A stretch of DNA of 38,954 nucleotides. Origin: a virus (lineage: Duplodnaviria > Caudoviricetes). The notes beneath the pieces are model-generated. The model was not told the origin of the DNA and ran no database searches. It saw nothing but the letters and a program-made list of their open reading frames with translations. This document shows, in pieces, positions 3,001 to 24,036 of this stretch. Location of the stretch: the IMG/VR virus record IMGVR_UViG_3300031519_000071, positions 1-38,954 of that record; one strand, 5' to 3'. Numbering within the stretch: the first letter of the stretch is position 1; the number at the start of each line of letters is the position of its first letter. The translations under genes and the position numbers were made by a program.

Positions 3001-5525
3001 TTGACCTTGACGAAAGCGTTAAGTCAATGCTGTATTACACGCGTACTGAGAGCAAACAAGAAGCTAATCAAATACGTGATGCGTTAAATGAAGAGTTTAA
3101 TACTTATGATGCAAGCGAAACTACAATAAGGGTAGACGGTGGTAAACAAAAAGCAAATGAAGACGGTACTCTTAATCCGGACACCGTAAATAATATTGTA
3201 TTCCGTGCTGAAAGTAGCACTGCCAGTTCAACTTCTACTCTTGCTAATGGCGTAAACTATGATGATGTAGCCAACACATTATTACGCGCTGGTATTTCTT
3301 TAAAACAAAAAGACCGCGATAACCTAATAAAAATGATGACCAACCAACATTCTGTTGCACGTAAACGGATGGAGTTTAGCCAAACCCCCGGTTGGGAACA
3401 GGATATGATGCGTGGTATAGCAGAACATCTTGAGACACAAACACACATAGCAGGTAAAAACCGGTTCAAGCACCAAGTTTCTCGTGTTGTTGCAGATAAA
3501 ACTGCGGAACTTAATCTATGGGATGGTAATCTAAGAGAGCTTGAGCGAAGGCAAAATGCTTACAGAGACGCGGCTGATAAAAGCCGTAAAGGTTATAACG
3601 AAGCAAAGTCAGACCTTGCCTTTATGGATATGACATCATACCAACATTCATACATAGAGTCTTCTGATAAACGGAATATAACTATTTTAAATAGAGACCT
3701 TAGCGAAAGTAAAGTAGATGGAAAAGGTAAATCAGGACAATATAAAGAGGACGCTAATAAATTAGTAGAGTTTTACAACAACACGGCTAACATTGCTGAA
3801 GCTACTGGTGAAGAAAAATTTGGTAAGATGTTTGGTAAATTTGCCACAGTCACTGCTGCTATGCAATTAGGTGGCGCAATAGCTCCAGCCCTTATTAACT
3901 TAACTTCGTTAGGTAGTCACGCCATACCATACCTATCTACAATAAACAACAAGACCGGATATGGTGGTGGCTTTGGTCCCAGTGCAGCAGCGGCAGCTAT
4001 CTACAGAGCAGGCAGTGATATGTCTCTTATCAAAGCTGTTCTCAAGATGGACGACGTAACTGGTACTGCGGCCAAACTTGATGTGTTACTTAACGGCACT
4101 AAAGAAAATCCTAAAGTGTGGAAAGAAGGTGAGCGTGTCTACAATATGACAAGGGATGAGCTACAGTTCCTACAGTCGCTAACAGAAAAGGGTGTGCTAA
4201 CACCTAATATGTTTAACGCTCTGGTTGGTACGTCACGTACAGGTAAACAATCCAATCAACTAGCAAGAATGACTGAAACATGGATGAAGTTATTCTCTAA
4301 GACTGAACAGTATAACCGACGCGTTACGGCACTAGCTTCCTATCGTCTGGAAAAAGAACGACAGCTAAAAGCTGGGGCAAAGGAAAGTGACTTTGCTACA
4401 GGTAAAACAGATGCGGCAAAGCACGTATACGCTCGATCAATTACTGCGGTTAACGCATCCCAAGGTAACTACGCACAGTACAACCGCCCTCACCTTGCCC
4501 GTGGTAATGTTGCTCAGTACCTATATATGTATAAGCAGTTTGTGGTTATTACAGTTCAACTGATGCGTAACCTTGGTACTAGGGAACGTCTGATTATGCT
4601 TGGGCTTCTTGTTTTGATGAGTGGTGTAAAAGGTATACCATTTGCTGAAGACTTTATGGATTTGGTGGACACATTAATGCAGAAGTTTGGAATCAAATCT
4701 AAAGGGGTTGAGGCTTATGTTTCAGAAATATCGGAGGCTATGATCCCCGGTTCGTCTCGTATTTTAATGCGTGGTCTTGGAGATTACTTGCTAGGCGCAA
4801 CAGTATCTAACCGTCTAGGCCACGGTAACTTGTTGCCGGGTACTACTTTTTTCCTTGCTGGCTCTGATACTGGTAGGGAACTTGCAGATATTGCTGGTCC
4901 TATAGTATCAGCCATGCAGGGTATAGTAGGTGGTACTGCGTTAATAACAAACTATGCCGCTGAGACTGTTGGCCTAAAGCCTGATGTAACCAGCTTTGAA
5001 GATATAGCTCGTACAGGTTTAGGTTCATCTGGTCTTAAGGCTATAGCCGAGAGCTTTATATTTATGTCTGATGGTACTATTACTAATAAACGTGGGCAGG
5101 TGGTAGCTAAAGATTTTGGTCCGTTTGATATGGTAACTCGTATGTTAGGGTTCTACCCATCTGCAGCTACTACCCAGTACGATATTAACCGTATGACCCA
5201 ACGTGCTAGAGATTACAGTAGGGTTATCAAAGAAGGTTTTGTTGCACGATACCGCAAATCTGACACAGCAAAAGAGCGCCGTCTTGTTAGACAAGAAGTT
5301 AGAGAGTGGAACCGAGATGCTGGTAAGGAGTCACCATTCTATATTCGTAACTTCACAGATTCTGCAAACCGTTCCACTAAAGAAGCCGAACGTACTGCAA
5401 CAGGTCGCTTATTAAAGTCAGCACCTAAGTCAGTGCGGGCTATGCAGAAAGACCTAATGCTTGCGTATGGGTTAGATACAAAAGGCAATCTTCCTGACAA
5501 CCTTGACCGCGTTAACCAACGCTAA
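3..5525 (+). CDS. Giant virion/ejection protein of the large polyvalent (PLxRFG-like) type, 5'-truncated
   Basis: The frame is open from nt 3 (QQPADIIFEATDEW...), so the true start is outside the window; >1840 aa. Zincin-like LGHEIIGHFGL motif followed by EAVEEAVAD. The C-terminal region has YMYKQF and hydrophobic Gly-rich helices, as seen in podophage internal proteins. Confidence 0.7.
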   Translation, partial: QQPADIIFEATDEWQNFPEGAIAPGGAEFRLSLTDPTQRQIRLIPTETQPESSQPTINLNQDPDTLGGAERLELAKELMATAAGRTEEFDFEKGARILMKDVLFDPPTGNKKVWWNEMAALINEPEGLGILWDSPDHLAISREVFLDLAGEYLVSGSTLGKTFTTTKDGVAGVERDWVRIALDMGWFLDTLLVLDGTPTKPSDRINNITDSKLGPDATIEDIVAEVKELSKRSGVVAETTSELAAMVTNTRAQQGSPNIVNAFINRVSSLIADGADLSFVVEGAPLSDWFPNNTATIENGKLKRPTSAEQSTQAKLDIADTRPVEGRNSNIETGRPITQPMPTNSQRAYIRKVVKGLNKKVSPLVMNVADLAEFKKKYAKQYREAVASRPDNKNIINENTAGHSFGNTVVIFRNNIKNKQHLAFVLGHEIIGHFGLASIMPKAKLKTLMDGIYDTDPRIRAEAIRRMSVYNMNKTEAVEEAVADLAGVVESQTIMRVWNAIKTFLNKLGVKFSDDMARYYVNQSRRMLRNGTTGDVSANGIYSDLMDIQDRYVEGRSSDNLASSAFSHKILSGQVSSEGLWSTLTDIAGDMTSAEGIETNIRKLSATTSNFATNFGRFAEILQTLDQKATRNRGLQELYKIFENQSEHVKRLQTILNDKTNFSHRYDPVSRILTGTRKKVTKENENDWQNGPPPQKFERDQANKLLQEARLFRYEESSEALIREQGSLLNISPEGAVTRNEEVIKKVIDAGSVTRKQFEAGLRTLKKDDAGNIIKGDPRIYKPDFKINDRVWRLYTEQRNAINEASIMVYEDKVIGMLGSQKIEIDDIVRINKLTPEQGRILHELSATHSKLYQAKPVIKGNKFEWNPESVEAARVFIYQAMRVMDSKNGDRKLNDWINGSSDPNDAGLEAFRKDKDFPQDFSELVEKLKVLNKAQLSERRELDARRTIQDLEISNSQLINAEYKAINEMLTSYVPFVRKGKFQVRVQAYRIVGGKEVPVDLDESVKSMLYYTRTESKQEANQIRDALNEEFNTYDASETTIRVDGGKQKANEDGTLNPDTVNNIVFRAESSTASSTSTLANGVNYDDVANTLLRAGISLKQKDRDNLIKMMTNQHSVARKRMEFSQTPGWEQDMMRGIAEHLETQTHIAGKNRFKHQVSRVVADKTAELNLWDGNLRELERRQNAYRDAADKSRKGYNEAKSDLAFMDMTSYQHSYIESSDKRNITILNRDLSESKVDGKGKSGQYKEDANKLVEFYNNTANIAEATGEEKFGKMFGKFATVTAAMQLGGAIAPALINLTSLGSHAIPYLSTINNKTGYGGGFGPSAAAAAIYRAGSDMSLIKAVLKMDDVTGTAAKLDVLLNGTKENPKVWKEGERVYNMTRDELQFLQSLTEKGVLTPNMFNALVGTSRTGKQSNQLARMTETWMKLFSKTEQYNRRVTALASYRLEKERQLKAGAKESDFATGKTDAAKHVYARSITAVNASQGNYAQYNRPHLARGNVAQYLYMYKQFVVITVQLMRNLGTRERLIMLGLLVLMSGVKGIPFAEDFMDLVDTLMQKFGIKSKGVEAYVSEISEAMIPGSSRILMRGLGDYLLGATVSNRLGHGNLLPGTTFFLAGSDTGRELADIAGPIVSAMQGIVGGTALITNYAAETVGLKPDVTSFEDIARTGLGSSGLKAIAESFIFMSDGTITNKRGQVVAKDFGPFDMVTRMLGFYPSAATTQYDINRMTQRARDYSRVIKEGFVARYRKSDTAKERRLVRQEVREWNRDAGKESPFYIRNFTDSANRSTKEAERTATGRLLKSAPKSVRAMQKDLMLAYGLDTKGNLPDNLDRVNQR

Positions 5526-15366: not shown

Positions 15367-15717
15367 CTATCCGGCACGATCATCCTCCCCAATGTTGCGT
15401 CCTTCATAGGCGATCAGGAACATGATACAGCATGCGGCATGCCATAGGTGGGGTCGGGAACTCTCAGCGTCAAACTTCTCACCACGCCACCAAGCCCACA
15501 TATGACGCATCAATGCACCGAAGGGGCGTGACCAGTGCATGCCCTCCTCCCAATTACGTGCGCCATATTTCTCTGCGCCGAACTTAAGTATGGTAGCTGT
15601 ACCCTCAAGGAACTCAGGGGCTAGCAGTTCGTACGGTATTTTATCTTGGTCAAACTTAACAGCTTGTCCTTCTGCGGCTTCTTTCCTAGATGGTATACGT
15701 ACTCTCTTCTCTGACAT
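15367..15717 (-). CDS. dATP/dGTP diphosphohydrolase (DUF5664 family)
   Basis: KFDQDK..YELL...FGAEKYGARNW..G..WSR...ALMRH..AW..GE..D.ES..PHL.HA.CC signature; TAGGAG RBS. Confidence 0.85.
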   Translation of the reverse strand: MSEKRVRIPSRKEAAEGQAVKFDQDKIPYELLAPEFLEGTATILKFGAEKYGARNWEEGMHWSRPFGALMRHMWAWWRGEKFDAESSRPHLWHAACCIMFLIAYEGRNIGEDDRAG

Positions 15718-17892: not shown

Positions 17893-18552
17893 CTATCTGG
17901 TAAGTTTGGCTAGTGTGGAAGCGGCAGTCATTGCGGCTAGATCAATCTCCTCAACAGAAAGAGACTTAGCTTTACGTTCTACAATTTGTTTGTGTCGTTC
18001 TTGTTTATCTTGTGGAACTAAGTCCCATAATGGAGGCCATGCTTTTAAAGCAGGGGCTAAAGTAGTGTATGTATCCATGATTTTATTAACACCACTAACG
18101 AAAGCTGATCTTTCATCTTCGAGCCTACGTATGGCATCACAGTACTTCTTGTACTCCGCTCTGAATGTATCCCATCGAGTATCAGAAGGGTCAAGAGTCC
18201 ATCCATTATAGGTACGAGACTCACCCATTAGCCCGTGTAGTTCTGCTTCTATCTCATTAGGAATAGGTGCAGAGTTAGTTAGTTTCATCCTAACAGTATA
18301 GTTATCGTTGGCAGACCACACCCCCTCCTGACTGTCAAATCCTCTTATGTCTATGTCATTACTGCGACGAAAGTAACTTTTTGGTAGCGATTGCATAGCA
18401 GTCTTATGGTCTCTAAACGCCACATCATAGACTGTCTGCCCCCAAGTATCAGGGTGGTTCTTCTGTGCTTCCTCCATCCTATCACTGAACAAACGCTTTG
18501 CGTTGTTAATGATATCACTTCTAAGTTCACCACTAAATCTAACTGTAGCCAT
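17893..18552 (-). CDS. Nmad5-like (nucleotide-modification-associated domain 5) protein
   Basis: CTAGGAGT RBS; N-terminal VRFSGELRSDII and C-terminal TTLAPALKAWPPLWDLVP resemble the Nmad5 T..L...WP....LP pattern. Confidence 0.5.
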   Translation of the reverse strand: MATVRFSGELRSDIINNAKRLFSDRMEEAQKNHPDTWGQTVYDVAFRDHKTAMQSLPKSYFRRSNDIDIRGFDSQEGVWSANDNYTVRMKLTNSAPIPNEIEAELHGLMGESRTYNGWTLDPSDTRWDTFRAEYKKYCDAIRRLEDERSAFVSGVNKIMDTYTTLAPALKAWPPLWDLVPQDKQERHKQIVERKAKSLSVEEIDLAAMTAASTLAKLTR

Positions 18553-18557
18553 ATTAT

Positions 18558-18755
18558 TTAACTCCTAGTTTGTGTTACGTGGACATCCCCATTGGAGTCC
18601 ATGCTTACTTTCATTGAACTGTTAGCCAACCCCATGATGGTATCGGCAAACCTATCCAATGCCTTACGTTGTTTGTGTATGACAACTTGTTGCACTACGA
18701 TAAACACTATCGCTAGCACCAACGCAATCCCTGCGATCTCATATGTGTACATCAC
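18558..18755 (-). CDS. Small protein with N-terminal transmembrane helix
   Basis: IAGIALVLAIVFIVV hydrophobic stretch; overlaps the upstream stop. Confidence 0.7.
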   Translation of the reverse strand: MMYTYEIAGIALVLAIVFIVVQQVVIHKQRKALDRFADTIMGLANSSMKVSMDSNGDVHVTQTRS

Positions 18756-19921
18756 ATCATCACCACTTCACCCCAAGGGGCTTCATCTGAGCCATTGGAT
18801 ACCCACAGTACAGGGTAATCAGGTTGAGGACCGAAATCATTACAGTATAAATCAGTCAAGATCACACAACATACAGGCTCAATGCCACGCTTCTCGATCT
18901 CTGCAAAGATAGGGCTGAACGCAGTACCACCGCCCCCTCTAGGATTGAATATAAAATCATCATCCCTTTCCATCACATCATACCCACTAACTTCACTGTC
19001 AAAGTGGATAGTGTGTAACTTGCTAGGTTTCTGATCCTCAAAGACAGTCCTGACTTCAGCGGCAAACTGTGCTTTCTCATTATCATTGATAGAACCAGAG
19101 CAGTCATCACCAAAAACAAGTTCTCCCATAGCTTCACCATCTCTACTTGGAAGGTATAGCCCTTGGCTTATGAAGCGGCGGTTAGGTCTGGACCATGTAC
19201 GCCAGTCAGTCTTGGCCTTCTCGACAAAGCGTTGCAGTACATCACGCCAGTCTACCTTGGGGTTGAGTACCTCATCGACTAGCCTCTCCATGCCAGCAGA
19301 TAACTTGCCCATCATCTTGGCGGCTTGGGCCGCTTGAGCAACCTTGACTTTCCACTCGCCAGCCTGTTGTTCCTGTTCCTGTTGTGTACCCTTGGCATCC
19401 ATACAGTCATCCATGCCAGAGCCAGTACCCTCATAGCTCCCACCAGCATCTCCATCTTCATCTTCTTCTGGTAAAATGCTGTAGATACCATCACTAGTAC
19501 CGCCCCCATCGGCATAGATATCCTCATCGTACAGGCCACAGTCAGGCATCTTACCCACCTTGTCATCAATCAATAGCTTGTTGATAACGTAGTCACCTGC
19601 ATGGTTCCAACGCTTGTGAGTACGTTCGTGCCGTCTGTAATTATGCTCAAGCATGGGGTGCATACACTCATGGGCAACAAGAAATAGAAGCCCCTCGTCT
19701 GTCAAGGTGTCACAGAAGTCAGGGTTGAACATTACCCTACTACCATCGGTAGCCGCAGTAGGTATCTCATTGGTAATCTGGAACGGCATATTCATGGCGA
19801 TAGTACCAATGAATGGATGCTCTAGGATCAAGGAAGTCTTAGCCTTGGCTAGTCGTTTCTTGAGCTTCTCAGTAACCGCATCAGTCAGCGGCTCTGCAAC
19901 TTGTTGTGCTACGTTACTCAT
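18752..19921 (-). CDS. DUF2201-type HExxH metallopeptidase plus vWA domain protein
   Basis: PTAATDG, AHECMH, WNHAGDYVIN, acidic Gly linker, MIDAS DCSGS, GGGGTAF and LTD; start revised to 19921 (or 19927) after GAGGAG. Confidence 0.88.
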   Translation of the reverse strand: MSNVAQQVAEPLTDAVTEKLKKRLAKAKTSLILEHPFIGTIAMNMPFQITNEIPTAATDGSRVMFNPDFCDTLTDEGLLFLVAHECMHPMLEHNYRRHERTHKRWNHAGDYVINKLLIDDKVGKMPDCGLYDEDIYADGGGTSDGIYSILPEEDEDGDAGGSYEGTGSGMDDCMDAKGTQQEQEQQAGEWKVKVAQAAQAAKMMGKLSAGMERLVDEVLNPKVDWRDVLQRFVEKAKTDWRTWSRPNRRFISQGLYLPSRDGEAMGELVFGDDCSGSINDNEKAQFAAEVRTVFEDQKPSKLHTIHFDSEVSGYDVMERDDDFIFNPRGGGGTAFSPIFAEIEKRGIEPVCCVILTDLYCNDFGPQPDYPVLWVSNGSDEAPWGEVVMM

Positions 19922-20114
19922 CGTCATCGTACTCCTCTTCAATGCTAATGTCATAGTCAATACCAACTAGTATTTTAGTCAGCAACTTGGTGTCCATGTT
20001 AGAAACAAGATGCTCAATCAGATCACCCTTGTTAAGGTCGTGCATCCTGTCATCCCACACAGACATAGCTCTTGGATATTCTTCCTTAAGAATGTTGAAC
20101 TCATCCAATGTCAT
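19914..20114 (-). CDS. Small acidic hypothetical protein (66 aa)
   Basis: GGAGG RBS; TAATG overlap; ends in EEEYDDDE. Confidence 0.7.
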   Translation of the reverse strand: MTLDEFNILKEEYPRAMSVWDDRMHDLNKGDLIEHLVSNMDTKLLTKILVGIDYDISIEEEYDDDE

Positions 20115-21175: not shown

Positions 21176-22145
21176 CGGTATTAGCCACAGCCCATGCAGT
21201 AAACGCTTGGGTTGATGCCAACTCAGGGTTACGCCTTGTCGCATAGCTTACTGTCAGTACACCAAACTCCTGTGGCATCTGGTTGGCAACTTGTATCACT
21301 CTGTCAAAGTTAGTAGTGGTAGCCTTGTGAGCAATAGCACCGCTGATAGCATACAAAGTAGCTGGGTCAGTAGGCACTTCGAACTTGTCAGGGTGCATCA
21401 ATAGATTGTCGATGTTAGGTAACGCCCTCTCGATCTTACGGAACCCAACAAACTCAGCCGATGCACCTTCACCAACAGCACCCTTGAAGCAATCATACTC
21501 AGCCTCTGGCTGTACGATATCCAGTACTGCTGAAACACCCTTGACCCATGATCTAGGGGTAGGATTCTTAGGTCTCTGTGGATCAAAGTCGTGTAACAAG
21601 TTGGGACGGAACCTCACAAAACTAATCACCGAAGGGTGTACATCCTCAGTGATAGCCCATCTAGTCCAGTCATCCAGCATGGTATCAAACTCAAGCTCAG
21701 TCTCACGATCAGCAAGGTGGCTCAGTGTACGATTAGCACCAGCCCTGTCCTCAACCCTGTTACCAGTGGATACAATCATCACACCTTCGGGTAATGGGTG
21801 ACCATGTAACTCACGCTCCTCTTGGATGTTAGCTATTACCTTTTGTATATCGCCACCACTCTGACCACGATCATCAAAGCACAGTATAGCCTCAGTCTCA
21901 GGATCAGAAGGCCACCAATGGGGCATCTTGTAAGTAAAGTTATCATCACCAGCCGCCATGTCAGGCACACCGAAGTCCTCGACCAGCATAGATGGTGCAT
22001 GATGGTGTATATAATCTACACCTAGCTGTTGTGCGGCTTGCTTTACTACAGAGGTCTTACCACCTCCGGGTTTACCTGTGATGTAAATAGGACGCTTGAT
22101 GTCCCACAGATCAATGATAGTCTGCTTGATTATTTCTGCTCTCAT
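21162..22145 (-). CDS. MoxR-like AAA+ ATPase
   Basis: Walker A GKPGGGKT, Walker B LCFDD, sensor STGN, LADR arginine finger, PTPRSW; GGAGGT RBS. Confidence 0.88.
   Translation of the reverse strand: MRAEIIKQTIIDLWDIKRPIYITGKPGGGKTSVVKQAAQQLGVDYIHHHAPSMLVEDFGVPDMAAGDDNFTYKMPHWWPSDPETEAILCFDDRGQSGGDIQKVIANIQEERELHGHPLPEGVMIVSTGNRVEDRAGANRTLSHLADRETELEFDTMLDDWTRWAITEDVHPSVISFVRFRPNLLHDFDPQRPKNPTPRSWVKGVSAVLDIVQPEAEYDCFKGAVGEGASAEFVGFRKIERALPNIDNLLMHPDKFEVPTDPATLYAISGAIAHKATTTNFDRVIQVANQMPQEFGVLTVSYATRRNPELASTQAFTAWAVANTDVLF
22129..22145 (-). repeat. 17-nt direct repeat, copy 1 (ATGAGAGCAGAAATAAT, the MoxR gene start)
   Basis: Identical to 22631-22647. Confidence 0.9.
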
Positions 22146-22315
22146 ACTTCTACCTCCGCTTTAAAAACTGTAGTTTCCACTTCAACAAGTTGGTCTGCTA
22201 ACTCTCCCAATGTCACAAATTCACCTTCATCATCGTATAAACAAACGAATCGGTGATTGTACAATTCAAAAAAAACTTGCTGTAATTTTTCTTGGGCAAT
22301 TGTTTGTATGCTCAT
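22142..22315 (-). CDS. Small acidic protein (57 aa, MSIQTIAQEKLQQVFFELY...), not in the ORF track
   Basis: TAGGAG RBS; ATGA overlap with the MoxR start. Confidence 0.75.
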   Translation of the reverse strand: MSIQTIAQEKLQQVFFELYNHRFVCLYDDEGEFVTLGELADQLVEVETTVFKAEVEV

Positions 22316-22331
22316 CGTGTGTAGTCTCCTA
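22311..22331 (-). repeat. 21-nt direct repeat, copy 1 (TAGGAGACTACACACGATGAG: RBS plus start)
   Basis: Identical to 22643-22663. Confidence 0.9.
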
Positions 22332-22345
22332 GGTTTAAGGAACCT

Positions 22346-22419
22346 GCCTCATCAGTACAGTGCGGTTAGTCACTGTAGACTGGGACACCACCCCAGTTTC
22401 GGCTTTGTAGCTGTAACCA
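22346..22419 (-). ncRNA. Type II hammerhead ribozyme
   Basis: Minus strand GCC-GAAA-CTGGGG-TGGTG-TCCCA-GTC^-TACAGTG-ACTAACCG-CACTGTA-CTGATGA-GGC: all core residues, stems I and III closed, stem II open; upstream TGGTTA (22414-22419) can pair with loop I. Confidence 0.92.
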
Positions 22420-22423
22420 GCAG

Positions 22424-22618
22424 CTAGGAGATAACGTCTAAGATAAATCCGTTGTCGCTTGTATACTTAGCGTCATACTTAGCAACTAGCTGTTGTTCTA
22501 TGGCATGTTGTGCAGCTTTTACTGATGCCGCATCTAGTATTACAAAATCACCTTGCTTACCATGCTTAGCGATTTCTTTATCACACCATGCATTAAATAT
22601 CTCCACTTCAGTACTCAT
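22424..22618 (-). CDS. Hypothetical early protein (64 aa)
   Basis: GGAG RBS; TAATG overlap. Confidence 0.7.
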   Translation of the reverse strand: MSTEVEIFNAWCDKEIAKHGKQGDFVILDAASVKAAQHAIEQQLVAKYDAKYTSDNGFILDVIS

Positions 22619-22920
22619 TATTCAGTCTCCATTATTTCTGCTCTCATCGTGTGTAGTCTCCTAATCATACTGTACTCATCCATCACTGAGATGGCGGCAT
22701 CGGGGTCATCCCACAATATTGTGGTATCAAGAACATGTTTCACAGTGCTACGGGGTAGCTCAAACTCAGTAGCATAAGCACTGATTACATCACGGCGACG
22801 GATGTAAAGGTACTCACGGCAACGAGCCTCGGCTTTACCCCCCTTCATAGGGAGCCAAGTTAGGGTTTTAGTGGTTGCTTCAAGAGCAGCGACAGCTTCG
22901 TATACTTTACGTAAGCTCAT
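22618..22920 (-). CDS. Hypothetical early protein (100 aa)
   Basis: Abuts neighbours; its C-terminus (MRAEI...) is read through the duplicated MoxR start. Confidence 0.65.
   Translation of the reverse strand: MSLRKVYEAVAALEATTKTLTWLPMKGGKAEARCREYLYIRRRDVISAYATEFELPRSTVKHVLDTTILWDDPDAAISVMDEYSMIRRLHTMRAEIMETE
22631..22663 (-). repeat. Composite copy 2 of the 21-nt and 17-nt repeats
   Basis: TAGGAGACTACACACG-ATGAG-AGCAGAAATAAT. Confidence 0.9.
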
Positions 22921-22921
22921 C

Positions 22922-23215
22922 TTACTGCCCCCTTGTTAGTAGTTTAGCGGCTTGTTCAAAGCCATAATCATGCTCGGCTTCAGCATCTATATACTCCTCA
23001 ACAGTCTGGTCTTTGAATGTGATTGTAAAGTTAAGACCCTGATACTGCTCGGCAGTATTAACATCATCGATAGTTATTCTTGAGCCACGGCGCATCGACA
23101 ATAGGTCAGATGATAGAACTTTAAACACATAACCTAGGCTCCACTCGTTAGTAGTACGGGCTGTTAAGGTAGGGCCGTTCTCTGGAACAAGATGTAGCGT
23201 ATAGTTACTTGACAT
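22922..23215 (-). CDS. Hypothetical early protein (97 aa), first gene after the promoter
   Basis: CTAGGAG RBS upstream. Confidence 0.75.
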   Translation of the reverse strand: MSSNYTLHLVPENGPTLTARTTNEWSLGYVFKVLSSDLLSMRRGSRITIDDVNTAEQYQGLNFTITFKDQTVEEYIDAEAEHDYGFEQAAKLLTRGQ

Positions 23216-23266
23216 AATAACATATCTCCTAGTTGATTAAAAATTTTGTGGTTGGTCGAGGCCCGA

Positions 23267-23295
23267 ACTATCGTCGATTCGCCAAAAATTGTCAA
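23267..23295 (-). promoter_or_regulatory. Sigma70-type early promoter
   Basis: TTGACA-17 nt-GATAGT, preceded by CCGAC. Confidence 0.65.
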
Positions 23296-23837
23296 GTCGG
23301 GGGTACTTTACCTACTTACTTAACATTGCACTATCTAGATACATGTATAAAATATATAAGTTAGTACTTTATGGGGGTTAAAAAAATATACCTTGTAAGC
23401 CATAGTAACAGCGGGTTGTAGAACAACTTTACATTCAACTATATAGATTATATAAGCTGGGAAACTAATCACTCCCACATTTTCATGCTTACTAACTTAC
23501 GCCAAATGTATAAAGTTATGAATTTAGTAAAAAAGGTGCGTGGTATACAACATTTAGTTAGATAATCTATATAATGTAGATAGTTAAACTTAGTATTATG
23601 GTCTGTAACGTATGGTATACAACAAACTATACAATTAAAACGTAAAGTTTATAGCTCCTGATATTAGGCTAATCTATATAGCAACTTATATAGCTGGGGT
23701 ATGTATTACCTGTAAGTCATTGATATCATTACATACTACTTGTATAAAGCCAGCACCTATATAAGCTAGCACCTATATACATATGCTTATATACACGCCG
23801 TGCTATGACCTCCCGATATATGGGCTTTATTAATAAT
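23296..23837. other. AT-rich non-coding region, candidate replication origin/control region
   Basis: No ORF >=60 aa; repeats TGGTATACAACA (23541, 23613) and AGCACCTATATA (23752, 23768); IHF-consensus match at 23713-23725. Confidence 0.5.
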
Positions 23838-23872
23838 AAAAAACAAAAAGAAAAGGGGAGCCGAAGCCCCCC
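23838..23872 (-). terminator. Rho-independent terminator with cUUCGg loop
   Basis: Minus strand GGGGGGC-TTCG-GCTCCCC followed by TTTTCTTTTTGTTTTTT. Confidence 0.9.
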
Positions 23873-23876
23873 AGTC

Positions 23877-23990
23877 TTAGTAGTAGTACGCATCTAGTAT
23901 GATAAGGATCATCATCGCTGCAATGAAGTATACACTTACAAGCACCGAGTACATGATAAGGTGTCTGATCTTAAATTTTCCACTAAACAT
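23877..23990 (-). CDS. 37-aa single-pass membrane peptide MFSGKFKIRHLIMYSVLVSVYFIAAMMILIILDAYYY, not in the ORF track
   Basis: TAGGAG RBS; basic N-terminus plus ~22-aa hydrophobic segment; directly followed by the terminator. Confidence 0.75.
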   Translation of the reverse strand: MFSGKFKIRHLIMYSVLVSVYFIAAMMILIILDAYYY

Positions 23991-24006
23991 ATTTAGTCTC
24001 CTAAGT

Positions 24007-24028
24007 GAGGGGAGCCGTAGCTCCCCTC
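24007..24028 (-). promoter_or_regulatory. Perfect 9-bp hairpin with cUACGg (UNCG) loop between two early genes
   Basis: GAGGGGAGC-TACG-GCTCCCCTC; no U-tract; immediately before the next RBS. Confidence 0.65.
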
Positions 24029-24036
24029 GGGTTAGA

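Follow-up and report, generated by a model that had tools for sequence, protein, structure and literature searches.

The analyzed stretch of DNA (hereafter the window; 38,954 bases) is a whole contig from an uncultured tailed phage that encodes PolA, an SNF2 helicase, a DUF927 primase, and SU10-type portal and capsid genes; by capsid, its nearest cultured relatives are Rhizobium phages, at 52% identity. The element considered here is a minus-strand hammerhead ribozyme of the leftward early region, lodged between a 64-aa ORF (22424..22618, minus strand), for which PHROG and Pfam searches returned no match, and a 57-aa ORF (22142..22315, minus strand). The 57-aa ORF overlaps the start of the gene for a MoxR-like AAA ATPase resembling gp24 of phage N4 (21162..22145, minus strand), downstream of which lie a DUF2201 vWA/peptidase gene (18752-19966) and an Nmad5-like gene (17893-18552, with a match below the Pfam cut-off). 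The RBS region CUAGGAGA (22325..22332, minus strand; Shine-Dalgarno (SD) motif AGGAG at 22330-22326) serves the 57-aa ORF in the window and the MoxR gene in most relatives. A sigma70-like promoter predicted at 23267..23295 (minus strand; 10/12 in a consensus scan that overall produced fewer sites than shuffled sequences) would drive the early operon across the ribozyme, and its TTGACA box is retained in 6/6 relatives checked; we infer that the ribozyme is transcribed from this promoter.

The surrounding region bears several other features. At 22631-22664 (minus strand), the end of a 100-aa ORF duplicates the RBS at 22311-22331 and the opening 17 bases of the MoxR gene, likely left behind when cassettes were shuffled at RBS sequences that they have in common. 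A long tract of AT-rich, non-coding DNA (23215-24030) includes two similar hairpins, one terminator-like at 23872-23855 and the other at 24008-24026, and may be an origin or control region. A dATP/dGTP diphosphohydrolase domain at 15367-15717 and the weak, below-cut-off Nmad5 match at 17893-18552 suggest possible DNA base modification.

A preliminary description, made from the bases of this region, had recognized an intact type II hammerhead within the early operon, on the coding strand, and proposed a search with the Rfam hammerhead models. That search confirms the assignment: RF02276 (Hammerhead_II) matches 22338-22404 with 40.2 bits, above the gathering threshold of 37 (E 6.3e-5), and this is the sole Rfam match in the window. 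The core pattern is perfect and occurs once in the window compared to 0 of 100 shuffled versions; the folding z-score of the ribozyme region alone is unremarkable (-0.30). Read along the minus strand, the ribozyme (22346..22403) consists of the 5' strand of an open, 3-bp stem II (GCC 22403-22401, paired with GGC 22348-22346), the GAAA core (22400-22397), a stem III of seven pairs closed by a 5-nt loop (22397-22379), the predicted cut after the C of GUC (22378/22377, placed by sequence and family chemistry), a 7-bp stem I (22377-22356; strands 22377-22371 and 22362-22356) with an 8-nt loop (22370-22363), and the CUGAUGA core (22355-22349). The end of stem II is 15 nt from the SD motif. The stems, the cut site, and this distance are as originally described. 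The sequence hallmarks of type II, namely a CUGANGA plus GAAA core with an NUH triplet, closed stems I and III with stem II open, and a pseudoknot, at least 4 bp long, that joins loop I to the strand immediately 3' of stem II (here AACC/GGUU, 4 bp), are all present. We found no cultured phage with a DNA match over most of the length of the element.

Family chemistry supports, as the expected consequence of cleavage, a 62-nt, hairpin-headed leader with a 5'-OH end. Stem I would remain on this predicted leader as a retained hairpin ahead of the RBS, a layout that is shared with RiboJ, so that the element may work like RiboJ without being a member of that class. Two other identities were considered and rejected: a ligand-gated, glmS-like ribozyme (no other Rfam family in the window; the downstream genes vary) and a viroid- or retrozyme-type element with tandem copies releasing circular RNA (a single hammerhead in the window).

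Eight loci besides the window's own record encode an ATPase 93-100% identical to the MoxR-like protein and represent the close relatives of this phage. The hammerhead is kept in 8/8 while the flanking small genes change; in one of them (L001), the RF02276 score falls below the gathering threshold. The 57-aa ORF is an optional insert between the ribozyme and MoxR, present in 2/8, and in the other 6/8, where it is absent, the MoxR start comes directly behind the same RBS. The 57-aa ORF, named in the preliminary description as part of the message behind the ribozyme, is thus not the conserved target. Upstream, the ORFs of the window (22424-22500) and of six relatives (L001, L360, L361, L363-L365) differ from one another at the N-terminus (38-64 aa) and share the C-terminal part, and an ORF ends at the identical stop in all 7 relatives with enough upstream DNA. 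In the alignment of the window with five relatives, all 21 pairs of the active fold are kept in 6/6 sequences (126/126 cells). Stem I shows one compensatory and one one-sided change; the compensatory signal is weak alone because 40/500 shuffles reach it.

A wider survey of MoxR loci (105 loci in 50 clusters, ATPase identity 58-100%) identified a type II hammerhead in 8/50 clusters, 7 by a strict descriptor and 1 by a relaxed look, always on the coding strand and upstream of MoxR; in the remaining 42/50, none was found in the available upstream DNA, which comprised less than 500 nt in four clusters. The position ahead of MoxR does not appear to be a slot for varied ribozyme classes, given that an Rfam search of the 50 cluster representatives produced 5 matches at 4 loci, all to Hammerhead_II. 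Neither is there a special tie to MoxR: among 88 unselected hammerhead candidates, just 3, all from one contig, have a MoxR relative downstream in the available DNA. One related phage (L076/L078) carries three type II hammerheads, spaced along its early region ahead of MoxR. At another locus lacking a hammerhead (L009, ATPase 69% identical), a long nested hairpin (3905-3985; -27.3 kcal/mol over 80 nt) sits just before the MoxR RBS, with no Rfam match at gathering score.

The location of a hammerhead between phage genes, upstream of a start codon, is an ordinary arrangement. In phages sampled more widely, the ribozyme typically follows a stop codon and precedes an SD and unrelated genes: an SD and start lie within 45 nt downstream in 58/88 unselected phage hammerheads vs 19/155 control windows, an upstream stop abuts stem II in 96/158 vs 31 in controls, and 94 downstream proteins fall into 87 families. 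A separate scan of genome contigs yielded only 2 non-redundant hammerheads from 121 stretches. Type II hammerheads between phage genes have been known since 2011 (Perreault 2011, PMC3088659), and the parts of that work available to us describe features that recur in the present element: the core, the topology, the pseudoknot of loop I with the 3' tail, and a placement ahead of a start between phage genes. Processing of polycistronic RNA is proposed there. The purpose of hammerheads between bacterial or phage genes is described as an open question (PMC6765202, PMC6155905, in the sections consulted).

In type II hammerheads, as outlined in the accessible portion of PMC3088659, loop I forms the pseudoknot with the strand just 3' of stem II. 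In the window, this strand is GGUU (22341..22344, minus strand), which follows the linker A22345 and pairs with AACC 22367-22364 of loop I. The preliminary description had instead chosen an upstream UGGUUA as the partner of loop I, and it has some appeal: UGGUUA is a 6-nt complement of loop I (including one G-U pair), forms a stronger duplex than the tail strand (-4.6 vs -1.8 kcal/mol), and is retained in the close relatives. Against this, a hairpin of its own (22408..22426, minus strand) holds UGGUUA in its loop, 10 nt ahead of stem II, and UGGUUA is missing from dozens of hammerheads that share the same loop I and GGUU tail. The two alternatives were compared on 98 phage type II hammerheads unselected for that contact, with a match defined as at least 4 Watson-Crick (WC) pairs. 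Loop I matches the 3' tail in 48/98 (permuted mean 12.6%; 0/500 permutations reach this value), whereas matches to the upstream 40 nt (37/98) are at chance level (permuted mean 43%; 451/500 reach), that is, the upstream partner shows no enrichment. The partner was probably misassigned, with GGUU 22344-22341 being the contact; an activating pseudoknot between UGGUUA and loop I is highly improbable, and this motif could at most be a decoy.

Directly after the pseudoknot strand lies a segment that the preliminary description, correct as to the hammerhead itself, had missed. This tail, CCUUA (22336..22340, minus strand), is complementary to UGAGG 22351-22347 in the catalytic core, and in the model fold, the resulting helix, P-alt, closes a 6-nt loop that contains the pseudoknot strand. 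UGAGG corresponds to N7, G8, A9, 10.1, and 10.2 in the usual hammerhead numbering. P-alt in the window includes one G-U pair, and the hairpin alone is worth -3.1 kcal/mol; CCUUA is also able to pair with the SD. Because P-alt pairs G8, the proposed general acid of the hammerhead (PMC6155905, as far as consulted), it excludes catalysis, so that, judging from the sequences, P-alt and the active fold are mutually exclusive. In the six aligned sequences, 30/30 P-alt cells are paired, with one two-sided change.

P-alt is uncommon: 98-99% of phage type II hammerheads lack it. With a loop of 6 and at least 4 bp, it occurs in 1/83 unselected phage hammerheads, in 10/50 hammerheads selected for AACC (0.3 expected), and in 5/10 at MoxR loci (0.1 expected; two of the five belong to the lineage of the window). 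Neither the RF02276 consensus in Rfam nor the text consulted and searched of PMC3088659 and its supplements describes a tail-core helix, although figures or the full alignment may bear on its novelty, and none was found in the portions consulted of the literature searched, including PMC6765202, PMC10085705, PMC6155905, PMC6206723, PMC5680766, and PMC13725137.

P-alt is supported by covariation. A first scan that left two facing positions free indicated that position 10.2 and its tail partner change together. In the scan in which only CUC was fixed in the tail, with 10.2 and the tail partner free, at least 138 loci were found; the matches listed comprise 130 distinct ones, of which one was dropped at a contig end; strict stems are present in 86, and 69 of these are non-redundant. 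Among these 69 from the matches listed, 10.2 and the tail base form a WC pair in 64 (permuted mean 28.7; 0/10000 permutations reach this value), and 11.2 and 10.2 of stem II in 69/69. The 10.2:tail pairs among the matches listed are of three types (G-C 37, C-G 21, A-U 6) and are accompanied by 22 different pseudoknot strands. The 44 listed matches that failed the strict stems had first been taken as a control; half of them proved to be hammerheads, and after the set was split, the 10.2:tail pair was WC in 22/22 hammerhead-like sequences vs 4/22 non-hammerheads. For the CUU tail type, to which the window belongs, the pair is WC in 24/37 vs 11.6 expected, compared to 15/58 vs 14.0 in the non-hammerhead control; ten A-A cases in the CUU set look like background.

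The sequences are related, and the tree built from such short sequences is weak (18-19 changes vs 26.4 shuffled); one contig (L617-L620) contains both the G-C and the C-G types. In the pooled set (n=105), the mutual information of 10.2 is 1.13 bits with the tail base and 1.50 with the stem II partner, compared to at most 0.16 for 18 other columns, and after stricter redundancy removal (n=60), the value for the tail base is 0.99 and that for other columns at most 0.27; this confinement to the tail base and the stem II partner argues against relatedness alone. The covariation between N7 and its tail partner is weak (33/69 WC vs 26.8 among the CUC matches listed, P about 0.04; neither the CUU set nor a count that admits G-U reaches significance), so the P-alt signal rests on one varying pair plus the fixed CUC or CUU. 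A DNA palindrome or a triple helix behind the complement is less likely because G-U pairs abound and the strand runs antiparallel, placing C across from G; a single base triple may nonetheless occur. Anti-SD 4-mers seem in excess in the tail (16/72 vs 11/199), yet not in the unselected set (4/35 vs 4/80), and the excess is explained as a by-product of P-alt. From these sequence comparisons, the P-alt hammerheads are apparently a rare, undescribed type II variant with a covarying self-blocking helix.

That a conserved helix is exclusive with catalysis shows that a second, non-catalytic fold is under selection, whether for what becomes of the cleavage product or for how cleavage is controlled. 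The reading that we tentatively favor, at a probability of roughly 45%, is that a complete type II hammerhead cuts the early polycistronic RNA at 22378/22377, after which the tail refolds and locks the cleaved state. In the precursor, stem II, the pseudoknot, and Mg2+ would favor the active fold and hence cleavage. The upstream piece, held by the 3 bp of stem II and, in this lineage, possibly by an additional 8-bp clamp, would then depart, and the tail would pair with N7-G8-A9-10.1-10.2, blocking re-ligation. The MoxR/vWA message would thereby gain a compact 62-nt leader with a 5'-OH end. Such ends are associated with slower 5'-end-dependent decay. The element would thus approximate a natural RiboJ-type insulator that makes expression of the core operon independent of the upstream accessory genes. 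Locking of the cleaved state is preferred because P-alt adjoins the pseudoknot strand, is predicted with a probability above 0.5 in 43/77 3' products, and would stop the efficient re-ligation of which tertiary-stabilized hammerheads are capable (PMC6155905, as far as consulted).

For the window itself, the folding models do not favor refolding after cleavage: in ViennaRNA folds, which cover secondary structure without pseudoknots or tertiary contacts, the tail of the 3' product pairs with the SD (0.92) and not with the core (P-alt 0.0), and likewise in 3/5 relatives, whereas P-alt reaches 0.62 in the precursor. A role of P-alt as an opener of the RBS is not supported either, with an opening cost of 5.3 kcal/mol in P-alt members vs 3.7, at a G+C content of 57% vs 53%. 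Because the model puts P-alt in the precursor and the RBSs are not more open, two further explanations stay live.

One of these, possible if on balance unlikely, is that the precursor tail competes with stem II as a brake, such that cleavage reaches only a fraction of the early transcripts, and processed messages occur alongside full-length ones in a fixed proportion. The tail is transcribed 5 nt behind the pseudoknot strand, presumably well before cleavage, and P-alt has a probability of 0.52-0.98 in the precursors of the window and five relatives. At the level of secondary structure, P-alt beats stem II in 68/70 cases, by a median of -2.3 kcal/mol, but these energies leave out the pseudoknot and the core, and stem II is predicted to be unformed even in hammerheads without P-alt (6/99 above 0.5). 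Moreover, in the window, the two folds are equal (-20.2 vs -20.1), and the 6-nt loop, predominant in the AACC-selected and MoxR sets, would be superfluous for a brake.

The other explanation, which we find rather improbable, couples the switch to translation: ribosomes that terminate on the upstream ORF or load at the downstream RBS would shift the tail among the core, the SD, and the free state, so that cleavage and downstream translation gate each other. In this lineage, the gating would be reinforced by a clamp between the RBS region and the end of the 64-aa ORF (22424..22431, minus strand), where the last codons and stop form an 8-nt perfect complement of the RBS region. The model pairs the clamp with a probability close to 1, none of its bases varies among the six aligned sequences, and the position of the stop of the upstream ORF, fixed as described above, fits the same picture. 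The tail ends about 16 nt before the start codon, which is near the edge of an initiating ribosome, and the opening cost of the RBS falls to 1.2-1.5 kcal/mol solely in the 3' product with the pseudoknot held. Yet clamps of at least 7 bp occur in 2/112 hammerheads vs 2.1 by permutation, both in this lineage and with no covariation, and an upstream anti-RBS clamp is accordingly rejected as a general hammerhead feature, being not above chance among these 112. Furthermore, when the tail changes, it tracks base 10.2 rather than the SD (C-G and A-U types), hammerheads lacking P-alt have the same spacing to the start (17 vs 16, P 0.11), and the opening cost of the precursor RBS, 4.0, is below the median of 5.35 for 28 genes in this phage.

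It is about equally doubtful that the element is an ordinary constitutive processing hammerhead whose tail complement was inherited from the ribozyme lineage and has little role in this phage. The layout is indeed common and gene-independent, and the P-alt of this member includes a G-U pair and forms a weak hairpin (-3.1 kcal/mol). Nevertheless, all four variant P-alt cells among the close relatives keep the pairing, including a two-sided change (reached by 159/500 shuffles and so not significant alone), and across the group three positions (11.2, 10.2, and the first tail base) must change together. A broader proposal, which we regard as speculative and unlikely, is that some phage type II hammerheads form a subclass that switches conformation naturally, in which the covarying tail displaces stem II and buries the catalytic G8 and A9 while ribosome traffic over the flanking genes chooses the fold; if true, phages would regulate the timing and extent of early-operon cutting.

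Comparison with known systems, for each of which the published account was available in part, places the element as follows. The RF02276 family accounts for the hammerhead itself, but the tail-core helix is absent from the material available on the family (PMC3088659). HHphage of the haloviruses HF1 and HF2 likewise precedes the start of an early gene by a short distance, and a 5' end has been mapped close to its cut, but it has a variant core, belongs to an archaeal virus, and precedes a helicase gene, with no tail helix reported in the material available (PMC3088659). In RiboJ, a hammerhead followed by a hairpin ahead of the RBS, cleavage standardizes the 5' end, and mRNA increases about twofold and protein two- to tenfold; RiboJ was engineered from sTRSV and carries a separate, appended 23-nt hairpin, whereas the tail of the present element pairs with the core of the ribozyme itself (PMC6206723). 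In viroid and retrozyme hammerheads, a complementary strand also pairs with the hammerhead, likely preventing self-cleavage, but through long stems in circular replicating RNAs, as opposed to the present helix, which is local, spans 4-5 bp, and directly follows the pseudoknot strand of a linear phage mRNA (PMC5680766). In the sources consulted, these blocking stems and the appended hairpin of RiboJ are the nearest precedents.

The tail helix may show how phages control self-cutting RNA and could improve ribozyme insulators. The three bases 11.2, 10.2, and the first tail base provide a precise mutational handle that could be used both in vitro and with Streptomyces phages in culture, Hank144 among them. 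The right-end genes of Hank144 (NC_054661.1 46276-50547) are interspersed with six hammerhead-like elements that carry no annotation in the stretch viewed, and 2/6 have the tail helix; this hammerhead region is matched by 59 Streptomyces phage records.
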